Shown here: in pieces, positions 5,601 through 63,362 of the stretch
Numbering within the stretch: position 1 is the stretch's first letter
Layout: each line of letters starts with the position of its first letter
Assembly (NCBI GenBank): GCA_964016885.1
Contig: OZ024740.1
Span: 390,352,001 to 390,416,000, forward strand
Source of the DNA: Eledone cirrhosa
Taxonomy: Eukaryota
DNA length: 64,000 nucleotides
Direction: 5' to 3'
Made by a program: the position numbers and the translations under genes
Notes under the pieces: model-generated
Databases searched by the model: none
Seen by the model: only the letters and a program-made list of their open reading frames with translations
What the model was told of the DNA's origin: nothing

Positions 5601-5634
5601 ATGGCCATCCTCGATAACGAGGGGGCAGCCATCA
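5601..5634 (+). mobile_element. Isolated 3' stem-loop end of the RTE-type TATG-associated family
   Basis: atggccatcctcgataacgagggggcagccatca directly after (TATG)n; matches 54687-54722 and 44583-44616. Confidence 0.7.
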
Positions 5635-5652
5635 TATATGTATAACACACAC

Positions 5653-15036: not shown

Positions 15037-15090
15037 TATATATATATATATACATACACACACATAGATATACATATATATATATACACA

Positions 15091-15626
15091 TGGTGGCTGC
15101 CAACTCGTTTTCGAGTACAGCCACTACTTTATATCCATGTAGGAGAATCCCTACTGATGCGCTGAACGAGTGTGACCTTTTAGTCCAGCCAGCGACTTGA
15201 ACACTCTGGTACAAACATTACACTTGCGACAATTATTGACACATAGTGCTGGGCCCATGGTACCATGTGACGACAAGTGCAGAGAGATCTCCAAATATAA
15301 AGCAATGCCTGTGCCGTGAAGATTTTATAGTGAGCAAAGGCACTGCACAAAGCCAGTCCCACTCTCTTAACCAAGATGATGTTTACCAAAAAGAAGAACA
15401 AGTCAACATCATTGGATACCATCAGGGTTGCAGGTGTTATATCAGAGTTTTCCTTCTCCTAGAACTCTCCCTTTGACATGTTTTGTTTTTAGTCCTGCAG
15501 GATGTCCAAAGTCACCCTCCTCACCAAGAAACCTTGGTGGGGTTGCCGGTTTAGTCGCCAACGACCCGACCATGAGACAGGTTGTACTGGGATACATGCT
15601 ACTAGTAGCACCAACTGGTGACCTGA
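15091..15626 (-). mobile_element. Non-autonomous bipartite RTE-derived element (family X), ~72-bp internal deletion
   Basis: Reverse complement of 44009-44616; 5' end abuts (CATA)n. Confidence 0.85.
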
Positions 15627-15729
15627 CATATATACACATACATACATACATACATACATACATACATACATACATACATACATACATACATACATACATA
15701 CATACATACATACATACATACATACATAA

Positions 15730-31148: not shown

Positions 31149-31263
31149 GCGTAATTCAATATCTATTTTTGAATGCCAACCAAAGCACAGTATTTTACAT
31201 TTACTTAGTCATTTTCCTACCACTATTTCTAATGGTGGAGACTATAGTTGATGCAGTCACAAT

Positions 31264-31883: not shown

Positions 31884-31985
31884 CGATGCAGTCATAATAA
31901 AATCGAAACCTGTCCGAGGTCATCATTAGTACTTTCCGAAAGAATTAAAACAATATTAACCATTGCTTATTATTGTAACTAGCAG

Positions 31986-40100: not shown

Positions 40101-41850
40101 TAGGTCCATAGGGATTATTTACGTTGTTTACTAGGTCCATAGATGTTCTTTACGTTGTTTACTAGGTCAATAGGCATTATTTACGTTGTTTACTAGGTCC
40201 ATAGGGATTATTTATGTTGTTTACTAGGTCCATAGGGATTGTTTATGTTGTTTACTAGGTCCATAGGGATTCTTTACGTTGTTTACTAGGTCCATAGATG
40301 TTCTTTACGTTGTTTACTAGGTCCATAGGGATTATTTACGTTGTTTACTAGGTCCATAGGGATTATTTATGTTGTTTACTAGGTCCATAGGGATTGTTTA
40401 TGTTGTTTACTAGGTCCATAGGGATTCTTTACGTTGTTTACTAGGTCCATAGATGTTCTTTACGTTGTTTACTAGGTCAATAGGGATTATTTACGTTGTT
40501 TACTAGGTCCATAGGGATTATTTACGTTGTTTACTAGGTCCATAGATGTTCTTTACGTTGTTTACTAGGTCAATAGGGATTATTTACGTTGTTTACTAGG
40601 TCCATAGGGATTCTTTACGTTGTTTACTAGGTCCATAGATGTTCTTTACGTTGTTTACTAGGTCCATAGGGATTCTTTACGTTGTTTACTAGGTCCATAG
40701 ATGTTCTTTACGTTGTTTACTAGGTCAATAGGGATTATTTACGTTGTTTACTAGGTCCATATATGTTCTTTACGTTGTTTACTAGGTCAATAGGGATTAT
40801 TTACGTTGTTTACTAGGTCCATAGGGATTTTTTACGTTGTTTACTAGGTCCATAGATGTTCTTTACGTTGTTTACTAGGTCGATAGGGATTATTTACGTT
40901 GTTTACTAGGTCCATAGGGATTATTTATGTTGTTTACTAGGTCCATAGGGATTGTTTATGTTGTTTACTAGGTCCATAGGGATTCTTTACGTTGTTTACT
41001 AGGTCCATAGATGTTCTTTACGTTGTTTACTAGGTCAATAGGGATTATTTACGTTGTTTACTAGGTCCTTAGGGATTCTTTACGTTGTTTACTAGGTCCA
41101 TAGATGTTCTTTACGTTGTTTACTAGGTCCATAGGGATTATTTACGTTGTTTACTAGGTCCATAGGGATTCTTTACGTTGTTTACTAGGTTCATAGGGAT
41201 TCTTTACGTTGTTTACTAGGTTCATAGGGATTATTTACGTTGTTTACTAGGTCCATGGGGATTATTTACGTTGTTTACTAGGTCCATGGGGATTATTTAC
41301 GTTGTTTACTAGGTTCATAGGGATTATTTACGTTGTTTACTAGGTTCATAGGGATTATTTACGTTGTTTACTAGGTCCATAGGGATTATTTACGTTGTTT
41401 ACTAGGTCCTTAGAGATTATTTACGTTGTTTACTAGGTCCATAGGGATTATTTACGTTGTTTACTAGGTTCATAGATGTTCTTTACGTTGTTTACTAGGT
41501 CCATAGGGATTATTTACGTTGTTTACTAGGTCCATAGACGTTCTTTACGTTGTTTACTAGGTCCATAGAGATTATTTACGTTGTTTACTAGGTTCATAGG
41601 GATTATTTACGTTGTTTACTAGGTCCATAGACGTTCTTTACGTTGTTTACTAGGTCCATAGGGATTATTTACGTTGTTTACTAGGTCCATAGGGATTCTT
41701 TACGTTCTTTACTAGGTCCATAGGGATTATTTACGTTGTTTACTAGGTCCATAGACGTTCTTTACGTTGTTTACTAGGTCCATAGAGATTATTTACGTTG
41801 TTTACTAGGTTCATAGGGATTATTTACGTTGTTTACTAGGTCCATAGGGA
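34110..41850. repeat. 31-bp satellite array, about 250 units
   Basis: Unit actaggtccatagggattctttacgttgttt, contiguous with no spacers. Confidence 0.97.
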
Positions 41851-42785: not shown

Positions 42786-44007
<1,222 letters not shown>

Positions 44008-44008
44008 G

Positions 44009-44616
44009 TCAGGTCACCAGTTGGTGCTACTGGTAACATGTATCCCAGTGCAACCTGTCCCATGGTCGGGTCGTTGGCGACTAAACTGGCAACCCCACCA
44101 AGGTTTCTTGGTGAGGAGGGTGACTTTGGACATCCTGCAGGACTAAAAACAAAACCTGTCAAAGGGCAAAGGAGCTCTTAAGAGTCAATGGCCATCCAAA
44201 ATCACCGGGAGAGATGACCCCTTAGCCTTTGTCAAGGCAGAATTCTAGGAGAAGGAAAACTCTGATATAACACCTGCAACCCTGATGGTATCCAATGATG
44301 TTGACTTGTTCTTCTTTTTGGTAAATATCATCTTGGTTAAGAGAGTGGGACTGGCTTTGTGCAGTGCCTTTGCTCACTATAAAAGCTTCACGGCACAGGC
44401 ATTGCTTTATATCTGGAGATCTCTCTGCACTTGTCGTCACATGGTACCATGGGCCCAGCACTGTGTGTCAGTAATTGTCACAAGTGTAGTGTTTGTACCA
44501 GAGTTTTCAAGACGCTGGCTGGACTAAAAAGTCACACTTGTTCAGCGCATCGGTAGGGGTTCTCCTACATGGATATAAAGTAGTGGCCGTACTCGAAAAC
44601 GAGTTGGCAGCCACCA
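44009..44616 (+). mobile_element. Full-length family X element (608 bp), bipartite non-autonomous RTE derivative in (TATG)n
   Basis: RTE-5'UTR-like ctaggagaaggaaaactctga; 3' part encodes relic CSVCTRVFKTLAGLKSH zinc-finger-like motif; terminal stem-loop; (TATG)n both sides. Confidence 0.85.
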
Positions 44617-44649
44617 TGTATGTATGTATGTATGTACGTATGTATGTAC

Positions 44650-44680
<31 letters not shown>

Positions 44681-44846
44681 TGTACGTATGTATGTATTTG
44701 TGTACGTATGTATGTATGTATATATGTATGTATATATGTATATATGTATATATGTATGTATGTATATATGTATGTATGTATGTATGTATGTACGTATGTA
44801 TGTATTTGTGTACGTATGTATGTATGTATATATGTATGTATATATG

Positions 44847-44880
<34 letters not shown>

Positions 44881-45480
44881 TGTATGTATGTATGTATGTA
44901 TGTATGTATGTATGTATGTATGTATGCGTGTGTATATGTATGTATGTATGTATGTACGTATGTATGTACGTATGTATGTATGTATGTATGTATGTATGTA
45001 TGTATGTATGTATGTATGTATGTATGTATATATGTATGTACGTATGTATGTATATACGTATATACGTATGTACCTATGTATGTGTGTATGTATGTGTATG
45101 TGTATATTTATATATTGCTATATACACCGGTAGGGAAGGAAGTAGAGACGGAGTAAAACAGAAATGAAAGAATGCAAATGTGACTTGCATATTGAATATG
45201 CTTTCACGAGTAACAGATCGATAGTTCGGTATATGTTGATATACACATGGCCTTACACGTGCTGTAGAAGTGGTGCGATATGATAATATTATACAAGACA
45301 AAGACACATCTGAACGCTCAATGAGTAGGCCTTATCAGGCCCTGGTCTAAATAAGTGACTTTACCTAAACAAAACCATACATGCTCACACATATTCACAC
45401 AGAGACACACACACATACATACATACAGACACACACACACACACACATACATACACATGCACACACACACACACATATAA

Positions 45481-45573
<93 letters not shown>

Positions 45574-45663
45574 TATATATATATATATATATATATACCC
45601 ATTGTAAGTTGACGTTGGAGGTTTATACTTTGGATATGTCACTATCTTATACATCAAATATTG

Positions 45664-45723
45664 TATTTTATCTGATGCAAGCATACTACAGTTTAGTATC
45701 CTTGAAATATGTATAATAAAATA
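45664..45723 (+). ncRNA. Hammerhead motif homologous to 18040, core A9C
   Basis: tattttat-CTGATGC-aag.atacta(cagtt)tagtat.ctt-GAAA-tatgta-TA-ataaaata. Confidence 0.65.
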
Positions 45724-45929
45724 AATATGATGCTATATTTTCCATTTATTACGATTGTTAATAATATATTATATGTATATATATATTAACGTTGTTCGAC
45801 CTCCGTCGGTCTCGACGACGAGTCTTCAAATTTTCACTGTGAAATAACGTGTTCTGGCAAACCATCCGCCAGCTTTGTAATAAAAATTCCTTCACACCTG
45901 CTATCATGAACGAGTCTGGGGGGTCTCCT

Positions 45930-47378
45930 CTCTTCAGAGAGGTATATCTTCGCGAAGTGCAGAGAATACGTTGCTGATCCCCTCAAATGTGGCAAGGCCA
46001 CTGGGGAGGATGAAATTCAGCTCGAGATATTAAATGTCTTAAATAGAAAAGGAATTCTCTGGTGGCCTGTATCTCTGGAAACCCGCCTAAGCAATGGCAA
46101 TCGGGATTGATAATCCCAATTTTCAAAAAGGAAGACAAGAGAGACTGCTCTATTTACAGAGGAATATCCTTGTTAAGCCTTCCCCGGTAAAGTATATGCT
46201 ATGTTTATGGCATAGATATGTAGGGTATTGTCGAGTCCAAGATAGCTGATAAACAATGTGGTTTTTACTCTGGACGCAGCAGAGCCGATCAAATATTTAC
46301 ATTGCGACATGTCTTTGAGAAATCGTGGGAGTATTGCCAAGATGTGTATTCTTGCTTCGTAGACCTCGAAAAAGCATATGATCGCATCCCACAGAACCTG
46401 TGTGGAAGTTTCTGCAGGAGTATTCGATCGATGGGCAGCTTCTTGTTGCTCCGATGTATATACAGACACCCCAGTATTTGTGTTCGGATAAATGGTGCTA
46501 AATTGAAGCGATTCAATGTGGGAGTCGGACTCCACTAAGGGTAGATACTGGCACCTCTCTTATTCATTATTTTCATGCACAGGATTGACATGCGCAGCCG
46601 GGTTGGAAGTGATATCATGACTGGCAGGTGCAGGTTCAGTCATCTGAAAGTTGCAGACGGCATGGTATTTCTTAGCTCGCCAGAAGGTGATCTTTGACAT
46701 GCATTTGATAGTTTTGATGCCGAATGCTGTATGACTGGAATTAGTGCTGCGAAGACTCGTCCTCTCGGGGAAGCCTGCACAGTGCACTCTATATGTGAGT
46801 GGAGTACTATCGAAGTAGGTGGAGACGTCCAAGTATCTCGGGGCCGTGTTCATGAGTGATGGAAGGCAGGAGGCTGAATTAAGTGGAAGAATTGCAGGAG
46901 CTGGTGCAGTAATGCGCCAGTTTCAGCATTCGTTCATCAGATAAAGGAGGTAGATGTAAATGCCAAGCTACTACCGCCAATTCGATATTCATGCCGACCC
47001 TTACGTATGGTTCACGAATCTTGGGTAATGACCGAAAGAATACGATCACGAATTCAAGCATCCGAAATGGGGTTTCTACGAAGTATCTTCGTAGCAATGT
47101 TATTCGATAGAGTGTGTAGCTCGGAGATCAGAGAATCGCTTCAGATAGACCCGCTACTTTTCCGAATTGAAAGATTATATCTCCAATATTATGGACAAGT
47201 GGGTAGAATGTCCCAGAAAAGAATCGCTGAACAGATTTAACGGGCAGATTTTACCGACAGGAGACCCAGTAGTAGACTCCGAGCAGGATGGTTGGATAAA
47301 ATCCATGAGCTTGGTTCGTCTCCCTTGGTGATCCAGCCAGATCAATTGGAGACGGTTGTATCTGACAGGATGCATGAT
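45930..47378 (+). pseudogene. Decayed RTE-clade (Rex3/Expander-like) LINE reverse transcriptase
   Basis: GKATGEDEI, IIPIFKK.DKRDC..YRGISLLSLPGKVY, DQIFTLRHVFEK, FVDLEKAYD, KYLG, ESWVMTERIRSRIQASEMGFLR with stops and frameshifts. Confidence 0.92.
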
Positions 47379-48261
47379 TAACCTATACACAATTACTATC
47401 TACTGTATTTATCATCATCATCATCATCATAAACACCATCAATTCACTAGTGGCTTCTATTAATTGACATTCTTCTATTAATTACCATCCACTCACCCGT
47501 TTTATGTTTAGTTATTTATCATAATCTATATCATCGTCATCCCCATCTTATATGCCACCACTGTAAACACCATCAACTTACTAGTAACTTCCTCAGCTGA
47601 CCAATCTAATCACATTATCTCCCGTGGCACGTCTCTGCTGTTCATCGTCATATCCTCAAATCTTCATTCTCGACTTCTCGAATCATTTTCCTTCTTTCTT
47701 TTTTCTTTTTATCCCCTTTTCTTTTGTTTTCTATCTCTTTTCCTCTTCTTACCTTTTCTTTCATTTTCCTCTCCTTTTCTTTTTTCTATGCCCTCTTGAC
47801 TTATTTTACTTTTTTCTTCCTCTTCCTCACATCCTCTCTATTACTGTTCACATCTCCCTTATAAGCGACTGAGTCTTGCCACCAATATGCGAGTGCAATA
47901 AGTCAGTGATGGTGCTGTCAATGAGTTCACCAGCCAGCTACTCAATGTAACCCCCTTTCATTGAAACAGGACAGGGACTGATTGCTGGAATCTTTCCGAA
48001 CATCGACCTCAAACAATATGATCCCAAATCGTTCTGCCAACAGAAGGCTACTGGACATACTAACGGGAGACAAAAGATGCTATAAATCAATAGACAGAAT
48101 TACATCCATTGTAATTTATCTAACCAAATTTCTCCTAGCTCTATGTACAGTATAGCTCCCCCCCCCCCCACACACACACAAAAAGATCATATATCTGCTA
48201 TATCAGGATTGAATTAGGTCTAAAGAACAAGAGCTACTCCACGAAACGTGGCTCATATAAG

Positions 48262-48475
48262 TATGGTTTCTGATTTAGGCACAAGGCCAGCAATTTTAGG
48301 GGAGGGGGAAAGTCGATTAAATCGACCCCAGTGCGTGACTGGTACTTTATTTTATCGACCACATAAGGATGAAAGGCTAAGTTAACCTCGGCGGGATTTG
48401 AACTCAGAACGTAAATGGCCGTCACTCAATGCCCCGAAGCAGAATGTCCGACGCTCTACCGAATTTGCCAATCCG
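48262..48475 (-). mobile_element. Family A SINE
   Basis: Family motifs. Confidence 0.85.
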
Positions 48476-49181
48476 TGCTCATATAATGATACCCCCCCCC
48501 CAAAAAAAAAAACATTACTATGCATGAACGATGTCAAGTTATATAAGGCCCATGGACTTAATTTAAAAACTTACAATACTTAGCTTTCTTATTTTAATAT
48601 TGCATTGTATTTAATATTTATTAATGGGACAGAGTCGCTGTCCGCTGAGACAGCTCACCAACGGTAAATATGTAATAGGCCAGTAAACTACAAAGACTAG
48701 AAGTTGGATCAGACAGACGAAAACAAATTTAATGTACCAGCATGAGAATGAAACGACGAACAATGCAAACTAGAAGAGAAATGCCTCGTATGGCATTGCA
48801 TGTCTATTAAATACATCATCTTCCAGTAATATGATTATAATGTTAAGCGCAATCGGAAATCACAGAAAGCATGGGTGAGGGTACTTAAATGGGTTTGTCA
48901 GGAATCGAACCATTGAACATTTCGCTTCTAAGAACCTTATCTCACAATGGTGGTATTTGGAATATTAATTCAACTAAAAAAGAAAAACAAACGAACAAAC
49001 ATGGTTGGTGGATCGTGAAAATTGAACTGAGTGAAATGGCTGCTAAAATCCAGAAATTTCATATGTAAATATAATATTTGCTAGCCGATGTATTGACTCA
49101 ACATGCCTTGAAAAACAAACAACTAACTAGCTAAAAGCAATAAAAAGTTTTGGGGCTCAGAAGAAGCAAACTCCTCAACAC

Positions 49182-49213
<32 letters not shown>

Positions 49214-50813
49214 TCGCTCAAGTACACGCACGCACAAACACATACGCACACATACACACTCACACACGCACACACAAAGTAAAACACACCTGTATGTTTA
49301 TTTGAGGTTTGGTAGCTAGGAATGTTTTATGTCGGAAAATACAAATATTAACTAAAATGTACAAATAGAATACTAATATGAACTAATAGGAAATGTCGGA
49401 GAGTTAAGATTGTGTCAAAGAGAAACGAGCTGAAAAGCTTCAGTTTGGAAGTAAAACATGAACGAATTTATAGCCTAGGATCAAAACCTGAGTGGCAAAT
49501 TAACAGAATCATTTGAGCGTAGGTCAAAATATCTTGGGGTATTTGTTCTGGCTCATTTCGATCTGAGCTTTTAGGTAGTAAGCGAATTACTTTGCTCGAT
49601 TTAACGCCACTACCAGGTCCTTACGTTTGACCACACTTCTCATGTAGCTAATGGCACACAAGGGCCAGGTGGAAGTGTTAAATCGACCAAGGGATTAATC
49701 TTACCGTCCAAAAACTCAGAACGCAAAGATACAGAAAAATATTTGTAGACATTTCAAATGAAACGACGAAAAGTTAAGGAGACCTTGGTTAGATTTAAAC
49801 TCTTTCTTTGATTAAACGTTATAAAACAAATAAACAAATAAAAAAACTAAGTAATATCAGAAAATACGCAAAAAAAAAAAATTTTACATTTCTAGTCTCT
49901 TATATCTACGAAGAGTAATATTGATTCAGTCTGTCAGACAAGAAGACTTAGGATGATTTTGGGGATGATTTCTTTTACTTGGTTTCCCTTTTCTTTTCGC
50001 CTTTTTCTTACCCCTTTCCGTTTTAGCAATCCCGCAATTTACTCCTACATAGAGAACCAGCTCAGGAGACAAGGCTACAGTGGAAACAGTCGGTTTAGCA
50101 GCTTGATCATCCTTAAATGAAAATGATCAACAATCGGTAGAGAAGGGTGTTTTAATTTCGTTATAACATTTCTCTAGTACTTTTTGATTTCGTTATAACA
50201 TTTCTCTAGTTTACTTTTGAAGAGGTAAATCTATTACGTTGACCGGCTTAACAGCAGCCAACCAGCCAATACTCTTCGATATTGGGAGATTTTAGTTAGG
50301 TTCACTTTGTTACAAGCATTGCATTAGTCCAATGATGTGGAGATAAAACAGTTTTCTTGAGGCTCTGTTTCACTACATATTATATTCATTGAGTAGTGCT
50401 ACTATTTTTCAGAAAATATTTTGGGGAAACATTTCTGGCGGTCACCCAACGGCATAAAACGAAGTTTTGTTTAACACTTCGTGAGTTTTTTTAATAAATT
50501 TCTTCGTAAATACTTCCTGCACATTTAGGAGTTGGTGTCTCTACTGAGTGAGAGTAAGATTTCGAGAAGTCCCCCTAAGTTACCATCTTCCAGTTGAACA
50601 ACTCAGAAGGATCAACACCACAATTCACTCATCTTTCTCACATAGATATTTGCAATAAGGACTTCTAGTCACTGTTATCTCTTTACTGCTCTCTCAAATC
50701 ACCAATTACAAACAGGTTCAATTATCTCTCGTTAAATCTCACCTCTCTCAGAAATAATCATCCCACTTGACATTAATGCACTCAATTCCTTGCTTTCTCA
50801 AATCCTACATACT

Positions 50814-50859
50814 GAGACTGATGACGGAAACCGAAAGGTTCGATATATTGAACTATCTC
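50814..50859 (+). ncRNA. Possible hammerhead motif (weak stem II)
   Basis: gaga-CTGATGA-cggaaacc-GAAA-ggttcgatatattgaac-TA-tctc. Confidence 0.45.
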
Positions 50860-51200
50860 TACCTGTTAATCTTTTTACCCACTCGTATTATTGATTGGTA
50901 CAATGACTCATGAAACACACAATGTCTATAAGAAAAAAACAGCAACAAAGAAAAAACGCCTTTACGCTCACACGTGCGCGCGCGCACACACACACGTACG
51001 TCACGAACTTTAAAAAGTCTAATTTTCTTTCTCAGTGATCAACAGAACAGTTTTCACACAGACTGCTCTATCAGAGATTTGCTCTTCTACGACACACCAG
51101 TGGCCACTCACCTTTTAAAGATTCGGTGAAAGCAATGTTGCTGCTCTGTAAATTCCCCAACCGTGTCTGTCATGATAATCTTCTATAAATTACCCTACAC

Positions 51201-52740
51201 CAGAGGTGTAACAAGGGAAAATAGCGCCTATTGCAAACATTGAAATTGCGCCCCTGCCCATGCAACAAGCTATATAGTAGTTGTTAGAAAATTGGATTGA
51301 CAGCACAGTTTAAATAAATGAGGGTTTAGGGTATTAAACTGCATTTTCATTTGTTCTACAGGTATCCTTTACGCTTAAGTATACATAAAGTATTGGCAAA
51401 AGTGTTAGTGTATTTAAAGGGAGAGACCTGTGTAATACTGATCTGTGACAAATATTAAAGGGAGTGATCTGTGTAATATTGTTCTTTGACAAATATTAAA
51501 GGGAGTGATCTGTGTAATACTGATCTGTGACAAATATTAAAGGGAGTGATCTGTGTAATATTGTTCTTTGACAAATATTAAAGGGAGTGATCTGTGTAAT
51601 ATTGATCTTTGACAAATATTAAAGGGAGTGATCTGTGTAATATTGATCTTTGGCAAATATTAAAGGGAGTGATCTGTGTAATACTGATCTTTGACAAATA
51701 TTAAAGGGAGTGATCTGTGTAATATTGATCTTTGACAAATATTAAAGAGAGTGATCTGTGTAATACTGATCTGTGACAAATATTAAAGGGAGTGATCTGT
51801 GTAATATTGATCTTTGACAAATATTAAAGGGAGTGATCTGCGTAATACTGATCTTTGACAAATATTAAAGGGAGGGATCTGTGTAATACTGATCTTTGAC
51901 AGATATTAAAGGGAGTGATCTGTGTAATACTGATCTTTGACAAATATTAAAGGGAGGGATCTGTGTAATACTGATCTTTGACAAATATTAAAGGGAGTGA
52001 TCTGTGTAATATTGTTCTTTGACAAATATTAAAGGGAGTGATCTGTGTAATATTGTTCTTTGACAAATATTAAAGGGAGTGATCTGTGTAATATTGATCT
52101 TTGACAAATATTAAAGGGAGTGATCTGTGTAATACTGATCTGTGACAAATATTAAAGGGAGTGATCTGTGTAATATTGATCTTTGACAAATATTAAAGGG
52201 AGTGATCTGTGTAATATTGATCTTTGACAGATATTAAAGGGAGTGATCTGTGTAATACTGATCTGTGACAAATATTAAAGGGAGTGATCTGTGTAATATT
52301 GATCTTTGACAAATATTAAAGGGAGTGATCTGTGTAATACTGATCTGTGACAAATATTAAAGGGAGTGATCTGTGTAATATTGATCTTTGACAAATATTA
52401 AAGGGAGTGATCTGTGTAATACTGATCTGTGACAAATATTAAAACTCTATTAAAATATTTAACAAGTCATACTATGAGATATGCTTATGTGATCATGTTG
52501 TTCCCAGCACTGTATTTTTTTATGGGCCTAATGATTTATATAAATGGTTTAATGATCCAGCCGCCATAGTGTTCTCACCCATGATAATCAGACATCTGAA
52601 AAAGTTTCTTATTTCACTCTTAGACGATAGCTTATCTGACTTTAATAGAAAGTACTCATAGTCCAGGTAGCCCCCCCCCCCCCCAGCTTCAATGACGCTC
52701 ATGGCACGTGCCATGTTTCCATACCTTAGATACGCCTCTG
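51201..52740. mobile_element. Non-autonomous hAT-type element carrying a minisatellite
   Basis: TIR cagaggtgta/tacgcctctg; perfect 8-bp TSD ccctacac at 51193 and 52741. Confidence 0.85.
51412..52443. repeat. 41-bp minisatellite, about 25 units
   Basis: Unit attaaagggagtgatctgtgtaatactgatctgtgacaaat. Confidence 0.95.
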
Positions 52741-53177
52741 CCCTACACTCCTATAGGCTCCCTTCATCTCTCATCTTTTAGACTAGAAAGCAATGACTAT
52801 CGATGGAATTCTATCACATATTCTCTTAACTTCAGTATTCTTTAGGAATCATTAAAAATAAATACAGGGAGAAGATAAATATCTACCTAACAAACTACTT
52901 ACCTATCTACCTATCTACCTACTTATCTATATTCTATCTACCTTCATTTCGATACATACACACACACACATATATATATATGCATGCATACATACACACA
53001 TATATACATACATGCATACATACATATACTTACAGACACACACAAACATACATATATACATAGTACATACATACCCACATACATACAAACATACAAACAT
53101 ATATGGACATACATATTTACCTAGTTGATGTTTAAATGAAGGAGTCTTGTGTCCATGTCTTTCTCTATTGGTGAAGA

Positions 53178-53652
53178 ACATACATACATACGTACATAAT
53201 TACATACGTACATACGTACATACGTACATACGTACATACGTACATACGTACATACATACATACGTACATAATTACATATGTACATACGTACATACGTACA
53301 TACGTACATACATACATACGTACATAATTACATACGTACATACGTACATACATACGTACGTACATACATACGAACATACATACATACGTACATACGTACA
53401 TAAGTATACGTATACATACATACATACGTAATACATACATATACACGTACATACATACCATACATACATAAATACATACATACTTACATACTTACATACC
53501 ATACATACATACGTAATACATACATATACACGTGCATACATACCATGCATACATAAATACATACATACATACTTACATACCATACATACATACGTGCATA
53601 TACATACCATACGTACATACATACGTACATGCATACATACATACGTACATGT
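53178..53652. repeat. (TACA/TACG)n compound microsatellite
   Basis: Direct reading. Confidence 0.9.
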
Positions 53653-54404
53653 ATAAGAAGCGGAGATACCAATTTGCAGGCAAACTATTGCTATAAGAGT
53701 CCAAGTAAGCAATGTAAGAAAACGATGACTCATTATAACAAATATTGATTTCTAGGTTTGGCACCAAGCCGTGAATAATCTGAGGTGTATAGCTAACTTC
53801 AACGATTGAGTTTTAGTAGATAATTTCATCATAGATTAGACAACTTTGACCTCATTTGGATGAGAAATCAGAAAGTCAAGGGGACGTAATAAAACACACA
53901 AAACTGCAATGCATTACCTAAATGCGCGAATGTTTCAGATAGTCCGCTATATCTGCTGCTGCCATCAAATAAATATTAGAGCTAGCTATTAGAAAGTAAT
54001 TGTTCTTCGTTAAAATTTAAATGATGGCAATTAGATAAATGCCATAGTTGCAAAAACGTTAATGTTCAAGTCAACGAGAAAGTTTCTATGTGATCGGTCG
54101 CTCGACCTGTTAGCATAAGTAAACAAAACTATACATCTCCCTCAAACAAAACCATACTGTCCTAAATATGGAAAATACGTACTAGGTGATGTAGACCGTG
54201 TGGTCACTCGACCTGTTAGCATCAGTAGCCAAAACAATAAATCTCCCTCAGGCAAAACATTACCCTACTGTCCTAAAAATGGAAAAAAATGCATTAGGTA
54301 ATGTCGTCCTACAAAACAGCAGCAATATAAAAGGAATCAATGTTTGGATTAATGTAATTAATTTTAATAGACATTATTCCGTCGAGAATCATATATTATA
54401 AAAG

Positions 54405-54722
54405 TCACACCTGGAGAGGAGATGGACTCCATAAGTTATGGAACCATGTCAGGGCATTCTTCTAGGAGAAGGTAACTCAGGAAACTGGGATAACTCCGAC
54501 ATAAAACCTGCGTCTCAGTAGTTACCGATGATGTCGATCTTTTCTTCTTTTCGGGTTATAGCTATTGTTGCTCAGAGAGTGGGATTGGCTCAGTGCACAG
54601 TCTTTCTTGACTTTAAAAAAAATCTTCACGCACAGGCATTGCACGATAGAATTAATTAATAATTATTAATAATAGTATATCGTGCAATGGCCATACTCGA
54701 TAACGAGGGGGCAGCTATCATC
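54405..54722 (+). mobile_element. Family X relative (variant Z), 5'-truncated
   Basis: ctaggagaagg..., gatgatgtcga, gagagtggga.tggc, caggcattgc, then AT hairpin, 3' stem-loop and (TGTA)n. Confidence 0.75.
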
Positions 54723-54829
54723 ATGTATGTATGTATGTATGTATGTATGTATGTATGTATGTATGTATGTATGTATGTATGTATGTATGTATGTATGTAT
54801 GTATGCATGTATGTATGTATGTATTTATG

Positions 54830-55324
54830 TCAGGTCGCTCTCGAGTGGTATTGGTAACATGTAGCCCAGTACAACCTGTCTCATGGTCGGGTCATCGGCG
54901 ACTAAACCGGCAACCCCACCAAGCTTTCTGGGTGAGGAGGGTGATATTTGGACACCCTGCGGGATGTAATGCAAGACCCGGCAAAGGGCGGAGGAACTAA
55001 GCAGTGAAAATGGTCATCCAAATAGTATTTTATTGTCGCCTGGGAGTGAAAGACCTCCAGTTGTTGTCGCAAGACCTTTCTAAGAGTGGAAAACTCTGAA
55101 AAAAAACTCATTCGGCTTCGGAAGCCCCGATGATGTTGACCAGTTCTTTTCGGGTAGTATTTTCGATGCTCAGAGAGTGGGATTGGTCGAGTGCAAGGCC
55201 TTTCCCCCACTTAAAAAACCTTCAAAGTACAGGCATTGCTTGTTCAGGATCTGTTACAGGTTCATGTTGCTGACCGTAGCCTAACAAGCGATTGCAGTAC
55301 TCTTAGCAGAGTTTGCAGCCATCA
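54830..55324 (+). mobile_element. Family X relative (variant Y), full-length ~495 bp
   Basis: Same 5' start tcaggtc and leader; shorter 3' part ending gcagccatca(tgta)n; (TATG)n both sides. Confidence 0.8.
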
Positions 55325-55720
55325 TGCATGTATGTATATATATATGTATGTGTGTATGTATGTATGTATGTATGTATGTATGTATGTATGTATGTATGTA
55401 TGTATGTATGTATGTGTTTGAGTGGTATAATCATCTATCTACATATCCATTTATTTACTTTCTAAATTTTACTTTATTTTATTTCTTCTCATTTCTCTCA
55501 TTAAATTATTAATTGATTTACTTATTTATGCATTCCTATACAAAACCTTTTAAATCTCCTTAATATACCTCTCCTTCGATTCACCTCCAACTTCTAGGTG
55601 TCGTGGCCCTCATACCCTACCTCTTCCAGCTTTCACTCTTATGGTCCCACGATTTGTTTGACACAAGTATAGACATATATGTTTGTATGTATACATGTAC
55701 AATTGTATGTGTGCGCATGC

Positions 55721-55751
<31 letters not shown>

Positions 55752-55779
55752 TGTATGTATGTATGTATGTATGTATGTA

Positions 55780-55810
<31 letters not shown>

Positions 55811-55819
55811 ATGTATGTA

Positions 55820-55850
<31 letters not shown>

Positions 55851-55861
55851 ATGTATGTATG

Positions 55862-58620
55862 TTTTCTCTTTCTCTTAATTTCGAGTATATTTTTTTGACC
55901 GGCCACCTTCCTGGTGGCAAGGTTGTAAAAGAAAAGAAATTGTCATCCCTTGAATCGCAAGAATGTTTTGCATATTTTGAAGGTGCCAGCTATCGCAGCC
56001 ATTTGTAGACTATGAATTAGGGAGCTGCGCTTTTTGTCCGCAAATCCAAGTTCGGTCATACTTTGGTCCAAGCGGGTTGGTATATAACCCGTAGCACCAA
56101 TAATGATGGGTATGAAGCTAAAGGTGTATCTTGGATACTGGATTTGTAAGCTCCTCATCAATGGTCCGTAGATGTCCTCCTTCTCCTGTATTTTTCTGAC
56201 AACGTTTACATCAAGTGGGCAGCTGATCTCCACAACAGAACACGTTTTCAATGTGTGGTCCCAAACTACAATATCAGGCCGGTTGTGCTTTAATTTGGTG
56301 GCAGTTTTTATTTTCAGGTTCCACCAGTATTCCTTAGTGCCATCTGTCTCAATATATTCTTCCTCGTTTGTTGTTAATTTTGTTTTCCGAAGTGCGTTCC
56401 AGATAGTTCTAGCTATCCCATCGTGTCTCATGGGGAGGTAGTAGCGAGATGACATTCTTTCGCAGCTGGCAACAATGTGGCTTACATCCTCGATCTTTGT
56501 TTTACATAGCCTACATTTATTGTCAGCTGCTGGCCCTCCTCTTTTGTGCAGCAGATATTTGGTAGGGAGTTCTTGTTCCTGTATTGCATAGAGATATCCC
56601 TCAAGGTGTGATGTCATAAACTTGTCGGAACTCCATGCCAGGCTTTTTGAGTGGTTTATCCCCTCTATGGTCTGTGTTTTACGCCTCAAGTATCCATGCA
56701 CAACTTTCTCTGTAAATTGGTCAATTTTTTTTTCTTGTTTGAACATTGAATAGGATCTTCCGATTTCTCTGGGTGAGAGATTTATATCAGGCTTTATTCC
56801 ATATCTCTCCTCCAGATCAGTCGCTATTCTAATGATATTTCTTTTTTCATGCTCATAAACCTGAGCAAGATGGTCGCCAACCTTTTTCCTCTGTTGAAGG
56901 TGTGGCTTCAGTGTTACTATCCGGGTCTCATATGTTGTTAATATTGATTTTAGACCCCGGCCACCTTCCTTGCGTGAGAAGTATAGCCTATCCACATCAC
57001 CATTGATGTTAAAGTTCCCAGTAACACTGAGAAGTTTTCGAGTTCTAACATCCATCTCACTTAGTTCTTGCAATGACCAGTTCAGTAGGCCAAATGTTGG
57101 CGTTAGAATTGGCACAGCATAGGTATTGTGGGCAATGTATTTGTTGTATGCTGACAGTTCTGATGACCATATTTTTTTTACTCTTCTGAGGTATTCAGTT
57201 CTGGTTCTTTCCTTATTTATGGGTCCATCATATCTGACATTCTCATCCTGTCCAAGATATCTGTAGTTGTCACTTGACTGCAGAGGTTGTATTGTCAGGC
57301 CGTTCATCTCTAGATTTCTAGAGGAGGGCACAGCTCTTCCACGTTTTACTGCCAAATATGCACACTTGGACTCACCAAATTTCATTTTGATGTCGGTTGA
57401 AAATTGTGTAATGAGGTCCAATTGTTTCTTGATGTCATTGATATTTGGCCCATACAACTTCAGGTCATCAACAAAGAAAAGATGGGAGATACTTCTGGGC
57501 CCACTTCTTTGTCCACCTTGTTTCCTGAGTAGGTAAGATAGTGGATTCAGTGAGAGAACGAAGAGTAGTACTGACAAGCTATCACCCTGAAAGATGCCCT
57601 TCTGGTAATGTATCCTATCAGTCTTAACCTGCTCCTTCTCACCTCTAAGGATCAAATTGGTGTACCAGTTCTTGGTCAGGCGTTCAACAGCAGCTACTAA
57701 TGGTTGTGGGACTTTAGCTAACTGTAAAGCCTTAATAATCCACCCATGAGGTACACTATCAAATGCTTTTTGATAGTCCAGGCACACGACAGTCATGTTT
57801 CTGCGATTCTTTGTTGTTTTTTCCTGAATCATTTTGTTAGTTAGTAGGTGATCTATGCAACCCCACACCTCCCTCTTTCCACCAGCTTGCTCAGGTGTTA
57901 TGATGTTGTTGGTAGCACAGTGATCCTGTAAGAACAGGTTAAGGCACCCAGTATATAATTTATACATGATGTTTTGGCAGGCAATTGGGCGGTAATTTTT
58001 AGCAAGGGTGGTTTGGCTATTTTTGGGAATGAGGAGAGTAGTGGCAGTTGATAACCATCTGGGCAGTTCTTGTGTGCCCTTAATGGTTTCTGTAAACAGC
58101 CGTATGAGATCTTGCCGATAGAAAGTGAAATTCTTCAACCAGTATCCTGTAATGAGGTCTGGGCCTGGCGATTTCCTATTCGACATTTTCTGTAGAGCTG
58201 TTTCCAGTATTAACCCATCTATGTCATATTGTTTTGTCTGGACATGTTGGCAGTAGTCCTGTTCCAGTTGTTTTAGCCAATTAGCTTGTCTGTTGAATCC
58301 GTCATCCGTTTCCCATACAGATCTCCAGTAGTTCTCAACCTGTTCTTTTGAAGGGGTGTCGTTTACAGGGATTGAGCTTTTGCCACCGAAGCTGCGATAA
58401 ACTGATTTAGGATCTCTGGCAAACAATCTATTTAGCACTTGTCGTTTATGGGCTGTTGACTTATATTTTAGTCTTTCTGTTGTAGCTGTGAGTTGTTGTT
58501 TCAACTGGTGTAATTTGGAGTTCAAAGTTTTAAATTTGGTATCTCCAAATCGTCTCTCTAACTTTTTCTTCAGGTCTTCCTGGTGTCGTGTGAAGTTTCT
58601 CTCTATGTTGCATTTCATAA
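55862..58620 (-). mobile_element. R4/Dong-clade non-LTR retrotransposon, 5'-truncated copy 1
   Basis: RT + CCHC + RLE ORF, ~80-bp 3' UTR, embedded in (TACA)n at both ends. Confidence 0.93.
55943..58618 (-). CDS. Reverse transcriptase / zinc knuckle / restriction-like endonuclease (891 aa open; true N-terminus probably missing)
   Basis: KSPGPD, NYRPIAC, LDYQKAFDSVPH, GIFQGDSLS, HLFFVDDLK, YRYLG, CRLC..ED.SH..ASC, RHD, RPDIVV..VVEISCP..EK..Y; the upstream part of the listed ORF is microsatellite. Confidence 0.93.
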   Translation of the reverse strand: MKCNIERNFTRHQEDLKKKLERRFGDTKFKTLNSKLHQLKQQLTATTERLKYKSTAHKRQVLNRLFARDPKSVYRSFGGKSSIPVNDTPSKEQVENYWRSVWETDDGFNRQANWLKQLEQDYCQHVQTKQYDIDGLILETALQKMSNRKSPGPDLITGYWLKNFTFYRQDLIRLFTETIKGTQELPRWLSTATTLLIPKNSQTTLAKNYRPIACQNIMYKLYTGCLNLFLQDHCATNNIITPEQAGGKREVWGCIDHLLTNKMIQEKTTKNRRNMTVVCLDYQKAFDSVPHGWIIKALQLAKVPQPLVAAVERLTKNWYTNLILRGEKEQVKTDRIHYQKGIFQGDSLSVLLFVLSLNPLSYLLRKQGGQRSGPRSISHLFFVDDLKLYGPNINDIKKQLDLITQFSTDIKMKFGESKCAYLAVKRGRAVPSSRNLEMNGLTIQPLQSSDNYRYLGQDENVRYDGPINKERTRTEYLRRVKKIWSSELSAYNKYIAHNTYAVPILTPTFGLLNWSLQELSEMDVRTRKLLSVTGNFNINGDVDRLYFSRKEGGRGLKSILTTYETRIVTLKPHLQQRKKVGDHLAQVYEHEKRNIIRIATDLEERYGIKPDINLSPREIGRSYSMFKQEKKIDQFTEKVVHGYLRRKTQTIEGINHSKSLAWSSDKFMTSHLEGYLYAIQEQELPTKYLLHKRGGPAADNKCRLCKTKIEDVSHIVASCERMSSRYYLPMRHDGIARTIWNALRKTKLTTNEEEYIETDGTKEYWWNLKIKTATKLKHNRPDIVVWDHTLKTCSVVEISCPLDVNVVRKIQEKEDIYGPLMRSLQIQYPRYTFSFIPIIIGATGYIPTRLDQSMTELGFADKKRSSLIHSLQMAAIAGTFKICKTFLRFKG

Positions 58621-59168
58621 TGTATGTATGTATGTGTGTATGTATGTATGTATGTATGTATGTATGTATGTATGTATGTATGTATGTATGTATGTATGTA
58701 TGTATGTATGTATGTGTGTATGTATGTGTGTATGTATGTGTGTATGTATGTATGTATGTATGTATGTATGTATGTATGTATGTATGTGTGTGTATGTATG
58801 TATGTATGTATGTGTGTATGTATGTATGTGTGTATGTATGTATGTGTGAATGTGTGTATGTGTGTATGTATGTATGTGTGTATGTATGTGTGTATGTATG
58901 TGTGTATGTGTGTATGTGTATATGTGTGTATGTATGCATGTGTGTATGTGTGTATGTGTGTATGTATGTATGTATGTATGTATGTGTGTATGTATGTATG
59001 TGTGTATGTATGTGTGTATGTATGTATGTATGTATGTATGTATGTATGTATGTATGCATGCGTGTATGTATGTGTGTATGTATGTATGTACGTATGTATG
59101 TATGTATGTATGTATGTATCTATGTATGTATGTATGTATGTATGTATGTATGTATGTATGTACGTATG

Positions 59169-59776
59169 TCAGTTCACCAGTTGGTGCTACTGGTAACATG
59201 TATCCCAGTACAACCTGGCTCATGGTCGGGTCGTTGGCGACTAAACTGGCAACCCCACCAAGGTTTCTTGGTGAGGAGGGTGACTTTGGACATCCTGCAG
59301 GACTAAAAACAAAACCTGTCAAAGGGCAAAGGAGCTCTTAAGAGTCAATGGCCATCCAAAATCACCGGGAGAGATGACCCCTTAGCCTTTGTCAAGGCAG
59401 AATTCTAGGAGAAGGAAAACTCTGATATAACACCTACAACCCTGATGGTATCCAATGATGTTGACTTGTTCTTCTTTTTGGTAAATATCATCTTGGTTAA
59501 GAGAGTGGGACTGGCTTTGTGCAGTGCCTTTGCTCACTATAAAAGCTTCACGGCACAGGCATTGCTTTATATCTGGAGATCTCTCTGCAATTGTCATCAC
59601 ATGCTACCATGGACCCAGCACTATGTGTCAATAATTGTCGCAAGTGTAGTGTTTGTGCCAGAGTTTTCAAGTCGCTGGCTGGACTAAAAACTCACACTCG
59701 TTCAGCGCATCGGTAGGGGTTCTCCTACATGCATATAAAGTAGTGGCCGTACTCGAAAACGAGTTGGCAGCCACCA
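59169..59776 (+). mobile_element. Full-length family X element (608 bp)
   Basis: Collinear and highly similar to 44009-44616; (TATG)n both sides. Confidence 0.88.
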
Positions 59777-60308
59777 TGTATGTATGTATGTATGTATGTA
59801 TGTATGTATATGTGTATGTATGTGTGTATGTATGTATGTGTGTATGTATGTATGTGTGTATGTATGTATGTATGTATGTATGTGTGTATGTGTGTATGTG
59901 TGTATGTATGTATGTATGTGTGTATGTATGTGTGTATGAATGTGTGTATGTACGTATGTATGTATGTATGTATGTATGTATGTATGTGTGTGTATGTATG
60001 CATGTATGTGTGTATGTATGTATGTGTGTATGTATGTGTGAATGTGTGTATGTGTGTATGTATGTGTGTATGTATGTGTGTATGTATGTGTGTATGTGTG
60101 TATGTGTGTATGTGTATATGTGTGTATGTATGTATGTGTGTATGTGTGTATGTGTGTATGTATGTATGTGTGTATGTATGTATGTGTGTATGTGTGTATG
60201 TGTGTATGTATGTATGTGTGTATGTATGTATGTGTGTATGTGTGTATGTGTGTATGTATGTATGTGTGTATGTATGTATGTGTGTATGTGTGTATGTGTG
60301 TATGTATG

Positions 60309-61528
60309 TTATCTCTTTCTCTTAATTTCGAGTATATATTTTTTTTGACCGGCCACCTTCCTGGTGGCAAGGTTGTAAAAGAAAAGAAATTGTCATCCCT
60401 TGAATCGCAAGAATATTTTGCAAATTTTGAAGGTGCCAGCTATCGCAGCCATTTGTAGACTATGAATTAGGGAGCTGCGCTTTTTTCCGCAAATCCAAGT
60501 TCAGTCATACTTTGGTCCAAGCAGGTTGGTATATAACCCGTAGCTCCAATAATGATGGGTATGAAGTTAAAGGTGTATCTTGGATACTGGATTTGTAAAC
60601 TCCTCATCAATGGTCCGTAGATGTTCTCCTTCTCCTGTATTTTTCTGACAACGTTTACATCAAGTGGGCAGCTGATCTCCACAACAGAACACGTTTTCAA
60701 TGTGTGGTCCCAAACAACAATATCAGACCGGTTGTGCTTTAATTTGGTGGCAGTTTTTATTTTCAGGTTCCACCAGTATTCCTTAGTGCCATCTGTCTCA
60801 ATATATTCTTCCTCGTTTGTTGTTAATTTTGTTTTCCGAAGTGCGTTCCAGATGGTTCTAGCTATCCCATCGTGTCTCATGGGGAGGTAGTACCGAGATG
60901 ACATTCTTTCGCAGCTGGCAACAATGTGGCTTACATCCTCGATCTTTGTTTTACATAGCCTACATTTATTGTCAGCTGCTGACCCTCCTCTTTTGTGCAG
61001 CAGATATTTGGTAGGGAGTTCTTGTTCCTGTATTGCATAGAGATATCCCTCAAGGTGTGATGTCATAAACTTGTCGAAACTCCATGCCAGGCTTTTTGAG
61101 TGGTTTATCCCATCTATGGTCTGTGTTTTACGTCTCAAGTATCCATGCACTACTTTTTCTGTAAATTGGTCAATTTTTTTTATCTTGTTTGAACATTGAA
61201 TAGGATCTTCCGATTTCTCTGGGTGAGAGATTTATATCAGGCTTTATTCCATATCTCTCCTCCAGATCAGTCGCTATTCTAATGATATTTTTTTTTCATG
61301 CTCATAAACCTGGGCAAGATGGTTGCCAACCTTTTTCCTCTGTTGAAGGTGTTGCTTCAGTGTTACTATCCGGGTCTCATATGTTGTTAATATTGATTTT
61401 AGACCCCGGCCACCTTCCTTGCGTGAGAAGTATAGCCTATCCACATCACCATTGATGTTAAAGTTCCCAGTAACACTGAGAAGTTTGCGAGTTCTAACAT
61501 CCATCTCACTTAGTTCTTGCAATGACCA
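60309..61528 (-). mobile_element. R4/Dong copy 2, 5'-truncated, frameshifted
   Basis: Same 3' end as copy 1; indels in T-runs; PD->SD change in the RLE motif; (TACA)n flanks. Confidence 0.92.
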
Positions 61529-61900
61529 TGTGTGTATGTATGTATGTATGTATGTATGTATGTATGTATGTATGTATGTATGTATGTATGTATGTATGCA
61601 TGTACGTATGTATGCATGTATGTGTGTATGTATGTATGTGTGTATGTATGTATGTATGTGTGTATGTATGTATGTGTGTATGTATGTATGTATGTATGTG
61701 TGTATGTACGTATGTATGCATGTATGTGTGTATGTATGTGTGTATGTATGTGTATGTATGTATGTATGTATGTATGTTTGTGTGTATGTGTGTATGTGTG
61801 TATGTATGTGTGTATGTATGTGTGTATGTATGTATGTGTGTAGGTGTGTATGTATGTATGTATGTATGTATGTACGTATGTACGTATGTACGTATGTATG

Positions 61901-62696
61901 TTTTCTCTTTCTCTTAATTTCGAGTATATTTTTTTGACCGGCCACCTTCCTGGTGGCAAGGTTGTAAAAGAAAAGAAATTGTCATCCCTTGAATCGCAAG
62001 AATGTTTTGCATATTTTGAAGGTGCCAGCTATCGCAGCCATTTGTAGACTATGAATTAGGGAGCTGCGCTTTTTGTCCGCAAATCCAAGTTCGGTCATAC
62101 TTTGGTCCAAGCGGGTTGGTATATAACCCGTAGCACCAATAATGATGGGTATGAAGCTAAAGGTGTATCTTGGATACTGGATTTGTAAGCTCCTCATCAA
62201 TGGTCCGTAGATGTCCTCCTTTTCCTGTATTTTTCTGACAACGTTTACATCAAGTGGGCAGCTGATCTCCACAACAGAACACGTTTTCAATGTGTGGTCC
62301 CAAACTACAATATCAGGCCGGTTGTGCTTTAATTTGGTGGCAGTTTTTATTTTCAGGTTCCACCAGTATTCCTTAGTGCCATCTGTCTCAATATATTCTT
62401 CCTCGTTTGTTGTTAATTTTGTTTTCCGAAGTGCGTTCCAGATAGTTCTAGCTATCCCATCGTGTCTCATGGGGAGGTAGTAGCGAGATGACATTCTTTC
62501 GCAGCTGGCAACAATGTGGCTTACATCCTCGATCTTTGTTTTACATAGCCTACATTTATTGTCAGCTGCTGGCCCTCCTCTTTTGTGCAGCAGATATTTG
62601 GTAGGGAGTTCTTGTTCCTGTATTGCATAGAGATATCCCTCAAGGTGTGATGTCATAAACTTGTCGGAACTCCATGCCAGGCTTCTTGAGTGGTTT
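61901..62696 (-). mobile_element. R4/Dong copy 3, 5'-truncated
   Basis: Nearly identical to the 3' ~800 bp of copy 1; the 224-aa translation matches. Confidence 0.92.
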
Positions 62697-63336
62697 CAGA
62701 TCGTCTTTCGTATTGCAGCTAGATCTGTTGGTGTCTCGTTTCACTGCGCCCCACACAAAGAAGTCGAGGGGGTTGCAGTCAGGCGAGCTGGGAGGCCAGA
62801 TGTCAGGTGAAGTGTGGTCGACGAATTTCTCTGACAGCCAGGCATGGGTCTTTCGGGTGGTATGGCAGGGTGCTGAGTCTTGCTGCCACACGTACGGCCT
62901 ACCTGCAGCTACCTGGTCGATCAAGGGTTTTACTACCTCGCTCAGAACGTGGATGTAGCCATCGGTGTTGAGCTTGAGGCCCTCAGGGAAGAAATGAGGT
63001 GGCATGACGTCACCTTGACTGCTGACGACACCTAAGACCAATGTTGTCGCTGGAAACTTTGTCTGCATGACTGGGCACGTCTTTGGATGAGACACCATTC
63101 TCCTGCTGAGAAAGTCTGAAATATCCTTATTTGTCCCCCCGGCGCGGATTCCAAGAAGAACTCCCTGTCTCTTCCACACATTTGGAGGTTCAAAATTATT
63201 CATAATCAATTATTCTGAAAATAAATAATGGAAATATAGTCACTGTTTTTATGAAGACAAGAGTGACAACGGAAGTAAAAAGAAATTGCATAAAATTAGC
63301 AGTTGAAAATTGCGAACAAATATCGTCCACACCCTG
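62697..63336 (-). mobile_element. maT (DD37D) Tc1/mariner relic, internally deleted, 3' end missing
   Basis: WQQDSAPCH...WPPSSPDCNPLD with 37 residues between the Asp residues; TIR cagggtgtggacgat next to TA. Confidence 0.88.
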
Positions 63337-63362
63337 TATATATATATATATATATATATATA

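Follow-up and report, generated by a model that had tools for sequence, protein, structure and literature searches.

The window analysed here is a stretch of 64,000 nt of contig OZ024740.1 from Eledone cirrhosa (assembly of 3.0 Gb), in which two kinds of long interspersed nuclear elements (LINEs) occupy the same TATG/CATA microsatellite. One is Dong1, an R4/Dong-type element with a restriction-like endonuclease (RLE); the other is a set of RTE-type families, namely X, Y and Z together with the autonomous family R, whose endonuclease is of the apurinic/apyrimidinic type (APE). An earlier note on this DNA had described two unrelated retroelement systems using a common microsatellite with opposite polarity, a description that our analysis bears out. 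We report the layout of the locus, the flanks of both systems across the genome and the rival ways in which this association could have arisen, of which independent insertion of the two systems into repeat that was already present is the probable one.

Organization of the locus

The layout was established by comparing the window with itself and by reading the junctions directly. Three Dong1 copies lie on the minus strand. D1 (55862..58620) is 5'-truncated, matches RVT_1 and zf-RVT, is 99.6% identical to a full-length copy and corresponds to positions 1465-4223 of the full-length element (4,223 nt), with the reverse transcriptase (RT), CCHC and RLE region in an open frame. D2 (60309..61528), also 5'-truncated, belongs to an older subfamily with a GAGATAA end (97.8% to the full-length copy), and D3 (61901..62696; 99.7% identity by sequence comparison) has its 3' end on CATA. 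CATA is present on both sides of D1 and of D2, and CATAC directly follows the sense-strand 3' end of all three copies, in agreement with the claim of the earlier note that Dong-type 3' ends abut (ACAT)n on their sense strand. The 5' end of D3 is joined, with no intervening repeat, to a fragment of a mariner/Tc1-type DDE element (62697-63337; weak DDE_3 match, PF13358 below cut-off), to which a sequence at locus L020 is related.

Family X is represented by a full-length copy of 610 nt in a TATG tract (44008..44617, plus strand), whose best 40 genome matches are 98-100% identical, by a second full-length copy (59168..59777, plus strand; 97.2% to the first) standing head to head with D1 and tail to tail with D2, and by a copy with a 72-nt internal deletion (15090..15627, minus strand), recognized by sequence comparison and from its flanks. 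Family Y (54829..55326, plus strand) is an older non-autonomous RTE-type element, 71% identical to X in its 5' part and equipped with its own 3' stem-loop and CATCAT end. Z (54444..54723, plus strand), identified by sequence comparison to R, is a 5'-truncated bipartite derivative of that autonomous RTE, and positions 5601..5635 (plus strand) hold the terminal 35 nt of R/Z (stem-loop and CATCAT; 97% to the R tail), an extreme case of 5' truncation. An irregular microsatellite block of 136 nt is repeated exactly on either side of the X copy at 44 kb (43823-43958 and 44657-44792), with a similar block near 44791; the direct repeat was rejected as a target duplication, not being anchored at the junctions.

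Microsatellite tracts link these elements. (TATG/TGTG)n lies between the 5' ends of D1 and X, head to head (58621..59167), and between the 3' ends of X and D2, tail to tail (59778..60308), and a (TATG)n tract separates the 5' end of D2 from the 3' end of D3, placed in tandem (61529..61900). The alternating array that had been proposed for 54.4-62.7 kb is thus confirmed in its layout, except that it also contains Z, a non-repeat spacer of 284 nt (at about 55417-55700) and the mariner junction of D3. The placement of X, Y and the 5601 tail in TATG repeats is likewise correct for the 5' side: TATG or TATG/TA precedes three X copies, Y and the tail on their sense strand. It does not extend to every 3' side, the X copy at 15 kb and the 5601 tail being followed by TG/TA repeats and not TATG. 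The 5' side of Z is not TATG. Finally, W (or Dong2), another Dong-type family with CATA flanks, has left a decayed 3' end at 53107..53178 (plus strand; 79% over 61 nt).

Dong1 and its flanks

Dong1 is a young family: the best 40 genome matches to its last 439 nt are all identical, ten near-full-length copies diverge by 0.36% on average, and the 1,174-aa frame is open in 7 of 13 long copies. Its Pfam matches are limited to RVT_1 and zf-RVT, with no APE domain, and the best PDB matches are R2 proteins. By eye, the C-terminus displays CRLC..H..ASC, RHD and PDIVV..VVEISCP, which we take to be the CCHC knuckle, the RHD motif and the PD-(D/E)xK-type motif of an RLE. Across copies the 3' end is precise and the 5' truncation variable. 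Identical 5' truncation points at different loci (L062/L075 and L038/L059; positions 2128 and 3774) suggest that elements were copied after they had been truncated.

Among named proteins, the closest relative of the Dong1 open reading frame (ORF) comes from Argonauta (63%). In a quick RT tree of 14 rows, midpoint-rooted, with no outgroup and no named R4 or Dong sequence among its rows, Dong1 falls in a separate branch with the Argonauta protein nearest, apart from (AAT)n-ending families and from an unnamed Bombyx match (P0079; 33% identity), with a support of 100 in the SH-like approximate likelihood-ratio test (SH-aLRT). As the target published for Dong is (TAA)n, Dong1 would represent a changed target within Dong-like elements, its place in the R4/Dong clade being provisional and suggested by features of the ORF. 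The older W family, with about 45-54% aa identity to Dong1 in the C-terminal part, has its 3' end on CATA (CATA exceeding TATG) in 26 of 27 copies. Its long 3' untranslated region (UTR) ends in AGAAGAA and is often found tail to tail with R, Z or X (loci L034, L038, L048, L058, L060, L066, L070, L074, L225, L245, L346 and L347). A third Dong-type family is represented at L190 (74% at the nucleotide level). The other half of the tree holds two RLE families at a greater distance (about 30% aa identity to Dong1; loci L087, L092, L182, L186, L187, L311, L340 and L343), and those of their 3' ends that were seen run into (AAT)n; at L311 and L343 one such family is inserted in simple-repeat stretches of R UTRs.

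Dong 3' ends, counted by an exact 17-mer with a one-letter filter, number at least 3,898 genome-wide. Flanks were tallied by hand over the first 100 Dong 3' and X 5' matches, and the background was taken from random 17-mers drawn from 98 evenly spaced stretches of the genome (980 kb in all). CATA is found in 96 of the 100 Dong 3' flanks, CATACATA in 77 and TATGTATG in none, the frequency of CATACATA among random 17-mers being 0.37%. CATA exceeds TATG on each side in all 38 copies with both flanks, and the phase at the 3' junction is fixed, with CATAC directly after GAGAAAA in 35/38; ATACA directly precedes all eight full-length copies. In raw reads of two other individuals (996 and 1,003 reads), the Dong 3' end continues into ACATACAT with a loose-end agreement of 0.75-0.96, so the junction with CATA is not an assembly artefact. 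The same continuation occurs in contigs of another organism. As a control, 15 young CR1 copies were inspected; their 3' ends lie in (ATT)n and only one runs into CATA.

The RTE system and its flanks

Family R came to light through the 1,040 matches to a degenerate pattern for the 3' hairpin. It measures about 4.4 kb and encodes an APE, an RT and three C2H2 fingers, and its best 40 genome matches are 98-100% identical; Exo_endo_phos and RVT_1 were matched in L316 and L315, respectively, two copies of this one family, which we take to be of the Bov-B type. Its tail consists of (CAT)1-3 after a CTCG-loop-CGAG hairpin. R is 31-41% similar to other RTE-like frames of the genome. In the copy at L313:1380-5835, (TAT)n and poly-T stand just before the ORF and a stretch of several hundred nt of TG/TA/TAT/poly-T lies in the 3' UTR; with such simple repeats inside its UTRs, R therefore disperses other simple repeats.

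Positions 24-251 of Z are about 90% identical to the R 5' UTR and positions 260-304 about 98% identical to the last 45 nt of R; for the copy in the window, the values are 90% in the 5' UTR and 96% over the final 48 nt. Judged by these sequences, R is the parent of Z, the ORF having been deleted and the 5' UTR fused to the 3' end. An inverted repeat at 54637-54689 spans the deletion junction of Z, and many solitary R/Z tails of 35-45 nt stop nearby.

X combines an RTE-type 5' UTR, a remnant of a C2H2 finger and a 3' stem-loop; its sense is fixed by the remnant, which carries a stop, and by the 5' truncations of other copies. The remnant is 65% identical over 23 aa to the last R finger (E 3e-8), and the 5' ends of X and Y match 5' regions of metagenome RTEs. 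X and Y appear to be related non-autonomous RTE derivatives, R being no more than 69% identical to X in the 5' UTR and 85% over the last 34 nt. The search for an autonomous RTE sharing the X termini, as proposed in the earlier note, was thus successful in part: R was found and has the Z/5601 end, but no element matched X closely enough to be its direct parent. Candidates rejected for having no ends in common with X include RTEs bearing DUF6451 (20 loci of 150 matches), the top APE matches, which are Tx1- and CR1-like, and an RTE with a plant homeodomain (PHD; two loci, L171 and L172), which has no ends in common with Y or Z either and in which the PHD-like Cys/His cluster lies within the RT region. 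A protein search with the 54-aa finger remnant of X gave no match, the X 5'-UTR pattern gave 0 matches in metagenomes, and an Rfam scan of L063, L002 and L046 returned no ribozyme, hence none of the HDV-like kind that caps some LINEs at the 5' end, and only repeat-driven microRNA matches among the matches listed (150 of 187), no fold aimed at such a ribozyme having been computed.

X is abundant, with 10,603 exact 5' 17-mers and at least 27,252 3' 16-mers. The first 100 of the 5' flanks (8,901 pass the filter) comprise 73 with TATGTAT, 22 with other TA/TG repeats, one of CA type and four without repeat, while CATACATA is absent; TATGTAT accounts for 1.6% of random 17-mers and, in an equivalent window, for 8.8% at TAT sites. 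Genome-wide enrichment of the 5' flanks, whose absence was named in the earlier note as refuting its reading, was accordingly found for X as for Dong, where CATA predominates in each of the 38 copies. Polarity was scored on 89 X copies, which come from the loci of several searches, include tandem neighbours and are not fully independent: TATG exceeds CATA on the 5' side in 72 and on the 3' side in 74, the reverse being seen in 4 and 3. At the 5'-truncation junctions of R, TATGTAT is found in 9 of 12 and CATACATA in none. Copies of both Dong and the RTE system that are 5'-truncated also land on repeat, which shows that the repeat on the 5' side does not belong to the element. Head-to-tail arrays of X with only TA/TATG repeat between copies occur at L007, L013 and L026.

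The G content of the X flanks is concordant between sides (rho 0.57, n 89), and anchored irregular duplications are present in 21/89 copies, compared with a mean of 5.75 and a maximum of 13 for mismatched pairs. Strict target duplications, sized on X copies as a stand-in for R, number seven among the 89; they measure 11-14 nt, within the 7-15 nt usual for RTE elements, all start with A, with T before it in 6/7, and all begin directly after the terminal CCACC of X, with no repeat between. The bases that follow CCACC are ATAT in 39/89 and ATGT in 38/89.

Relatives of R were found at 43 metagenome loci (40-50% identical), of which 18 were checked at the 3' end. Their tails are built of CAT, GAT or CAA units or lack such units, and mostly non-repeat DNA follows, with a short TATG after the tail in one; the repeat preference of the RTE system looks lineage-restricted.

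Arrangement of the two systems and other features of the window

Among 37 distinct Dong copies, both sides were resolved in 32. Wherever a Dong and an RTE element are separated by repeat only, they stand in opposite orientation (16/16 junctions), and the RTE neighbours of W across the repeat are opposite in ten cases and in the same orientation in one. At L063 and L305, the tract that links an X 5' end to a Dong-type end changes from TATG to CATA.

The window further contains a 31-bp satellite (249 copies, 34120-41850) and a 41-bp minisatellite (25 copies, 51414-52443). An abundant interspersed repeat of 170-220 nt, probably a short interspersed nuclear element (SINE), occurs at 3429-3602, 20732-20919, 28119-28311, 31258-32170, 33188-33607, 48263-48474 and other positions, and forms a nested cluster at 31-33 kb.

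Discussion

The flanks probably reflect two independent LINE systems that insert into the same TATG/CATA duplex in opposite orientation, each using pre-existing repeat and nicking opposite strands. In target-primed reverse transcription, the strand opposite the element sense is nicked first. The Dong1 RLE complex would recognize (CATA)n, with a probable reach of tens of bases upstream, and place its first nick on the TATG strand. For the RTE, the APE would cut at TpA in the CATA (or TA) strand; the primer so exposed would end in AT and could base-pair with the AU at the end of the (CAU)n tail. A top-strand TAT (in TATG or TATA) would permit this pairing and TAC (in the CATA orientation) would not, which would explain the polarity of the RTE system; transcripts that read through into AUGU repeats would extend the pairing, which may be why TATG is preferred although TA is far more common. 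Of the idea that the elements seed repeat, only a weak form would survive: some 11-14 nt of tract are duplicated per insertion, and Dong may extend the repeat on its 5' side. With repeat left on both sides, the site would remain a target for both systems, leading to stacks such as that at 54.4-62.7 kb. The opposite orientation of neighbours would follow from each system having its own strand polarity, no interaction being required.

Several observations weigh against this reading. For Dong, the target-duplication signal does not exceed the control maximum (irregular matches in 3/38, mismatched-control maximum 3), and the excess of repeat on the 5' side fits passive landing in existing tracts poorly. 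The term pre-existing rests on duplications and truncated copies, no empty allele having been seen: at the one Dong locus compared with the reads of four runs, no joint skipping the element was found, and restriction-site-associated DNA (RAD) reads missed its flanks. X is looser than a wording suited to Dong implies, 38/100 of its 3' flanks being without TATGTAT in addition to the four non-repeat 5' flanks, and pure repeat hides whether a short stretch is read-through tail or target. On the TAT rule alone, TATG should not be favoured about 8-fold over the rest of the TAT sites. As for the autonomous partner, none of nine R copies examined has an unbroken ORF, and junction-exclusion patterns aimed at the parent of X gave only X deletion variants (90 and 62 matches).

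The alternative that survives best, though we regard it as doubtful, is that the repeat grows at the 5' junction in the course of insertion, with the RT or a repair polymerase copying the (CATA)n end again as the 5' end is joined; Dong would then produce the long pure tracts to which further copies of both systems are drawn. The pure CATA run of Dong is longer at the 5' than at the 3' junction in 33/38 copies (median 49 vs 19.5 nt, p 1e-5). Site sampling from background tracts reproduces this asymmetry only if about 40 nt of upstream repeat is required, which then predicts medians of 62-73 and 28-33 nt, overshooting both observed values. Full-length X copies with runs of at least 20 nt lean the same way (longer at the 5' side in 14, at the 3' side in 5), but neither R (6 vs 4) nor X as a whole (36 vs 36; long runs 17 vs 13) departs significantly from symmetry, long pure tracts exist without elements, and an upstream footprint combined with a cut near the downstream tract end yields the same picture. 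The asymmetry of Dong would thus stem either from such far-upstream binding and cutting or from repeat added during 5' joining. A slightly less probable extension is that Dong synthesizes extra pure repeat at its 5' junctions while the RTE system, from an APE clade not known to be site-specific, pairs its AUGU read-through end with the other strand, each insertion extending the landing pad for both in a self-building niche. If this were true, polarized LINE stacks and long pure TATG tracts would follow from it.

Quite improbable, in contrast, is the scenario put forward in the earlier note, in which RTE tails deposit (TATG)n that then serves both systems as a landing pad, a loop that would account for how abundant the repeat is. 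Dong does lie directly behind an RTE 3' end in 6 of the 32 resolved copies, with direct abutments, 21/100 X 3' flanks are pure TATG, and moth RTE tails are described as creating microsatellites in the available text of PMC2887409. However, the encoded tail is (CAT)1-3, in the form CAC-CAT in X, and the metagenome relatives pass from theirs into non-repeat DNA; 43/100 X ends continue with TA, not TG, and ATGT is no more frequent than ATAT after CCACC. The seven strict duplications begin right at the X end, whereas PMC2887409, in the part available, takes a repeat between the duplications as its criterion. The tracts around X are symmetric, as given above. Moreover, 66/82 random TATG/CATA tracts touch none of these families, as do 6/11 of those with a pure run of at least 40 nt, and pure TATG/CATA runs amount to 2,885 bp in the 980,000 bp sampled vs 57,860 bp for TA runs. 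For these two reasons, the random tracts free of the families and the small share of TATG/CATA, the elements do not account for the abundance of the repeat, which the finding of two LINE systems leaves unexplained. Neither the tail-seeding nor the feedback part of the scenario is supported.

No more credible is a direct relationship, with Dong actively seeking RTE elements or X being mobilized in trans by the RLE enzyme. Nothing but repeat separates 15 of the 32 resolved Dong copies from an X, Y, Z or R element, and 10/82 random tracts with a pure run of at least 12 nt have such a neighbour (Fisher p 2e-4). Yet 17/32 Dong copies have none, and in the comparison with random tracts proposed in the earlier note the excess is not significant against longer ones, with 5/18 at a threshold of 20 nt (p 0.24) and 3/11 at 40 nt (p 0.31). 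Common use of long tracts is enough to explain the co-occupancy, and no interaction is needed. Trans-mobilization, already judged the less likely option in the earlier note, is not supported: the Dong and W 3' ends have nothing in common with X, Y or R beyond 9-nt chance matches. X also has RTE-type duplications and a polarity opposite to that of both Dong families, and an autonomous RTE with the Z/5601 end exists.

The least credible option is an absence of targeting, either through broad insertion with survival only in repeat-rich, low-recombination DNA or through growth of repeats next to old copies, for although the repeats are very abundant here (see the TA runs above) and passive accumulation near CA repeats has been proposed for Drosophila Waldo-A/B (PMC3812793, in the text available), the youngest Dong copies already lie in fixed phase, and survival cannot yield opposite strand polarity for two clades, a polarity that the CR1 controls lack.

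Comparison with known systems

Independent insertion of the two systems into existing repeat would place them among LINEs that target microsatellites, examples being Dong (TAA), Waldo (ACAY), Mino, Kibi and Koshi, as given in the available text of PMC3812793 and PMC4640811. The target reported for Dong, DongAg and DongBg of the R4 clade is (TAA)n (PMC3812793, same text). Dong1 resembles these elements in its single ORF with RT and C-terminal CCHC/RLE, precise 3' end, 5' truncation and microsatellite target; it differs by the tetranucleotide (CATA)n and by its separate branch in the quick tree. The repeat class itself is known from WaldoAg1/2 and WaldoFs1, R1-clade elements specific for (ACAY)n, ACAT included (PMC3812793, as above). 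Waldo is an APE-type R1 element, whereas here an RLE element is accompanied by an RTE on the other strand.

Bov-B-type LINEs of the RTE clade are described with a Tn-TA insertion signature and duplications starting with A (available parts of PMC6007223 and PMC13295347). As far as those descriptions go, R and X share with them the APE and RT, the short trinucleotide tail, the 3' hairpin and duplications of 11-14 nt from an A after T; unlike them, R ends in three C2H2 fingers and has simple repeats in both UTRs. Only a weak site preference is attributed to RTE in the available text of PMC13295347, where site-specific APE LINEs are confined to R1 and Tx1. In contrast, 95 of 100 flanks on the 5' side of X consist of TA/TG-type repeat and are polarized by strand. 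Bipartite non-autonomous RTEs such as Bov-A, RTESINE and RTE-N2_Lch join a 5' UTR to a 3' end via an internal deletion (PMC5786205, part available). Z has exactly this form relative to R, whereas X differs from these elements in keeping a finger remnant and all members of the present system differ in being associated with repeats.

Recent activity of Dong-R4 and RTE LINEs in octopus is reported in the available text of PMC13282606 and PMC9115989, which names no target: the word 'target' is absent from that of the former and 'target site' from that of the latter. The available text of PMC5035012 holds nothing on the target question. In the paper literature, Repbase being outside the search, we found no report of a CATA-targeting Dong or of a repeat-targeting RTE. 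The (CATA)n-targeting Dong branch and the microsatellite-preferring RTE thus constitute a new form of the known microsatellite-targeting LINEs.

With the present work, a tetranucleotide joins the targets of the Dong/R4 group, and an RTE family is seen to have a strong, strand-polarized preference for repeat, in a clade that the cited papers treat as weakly selective. For this animal group, TATG microsatellite markers and repeat annotation are confounded by such stacks. Dong1, an RLE element that is young, retains intact ORFs and has a simple target present in about 10^5 copies, is also a tractable system in which to study changes of specificity in R2-like enzymes and the formation of 5' junctions within repeats.

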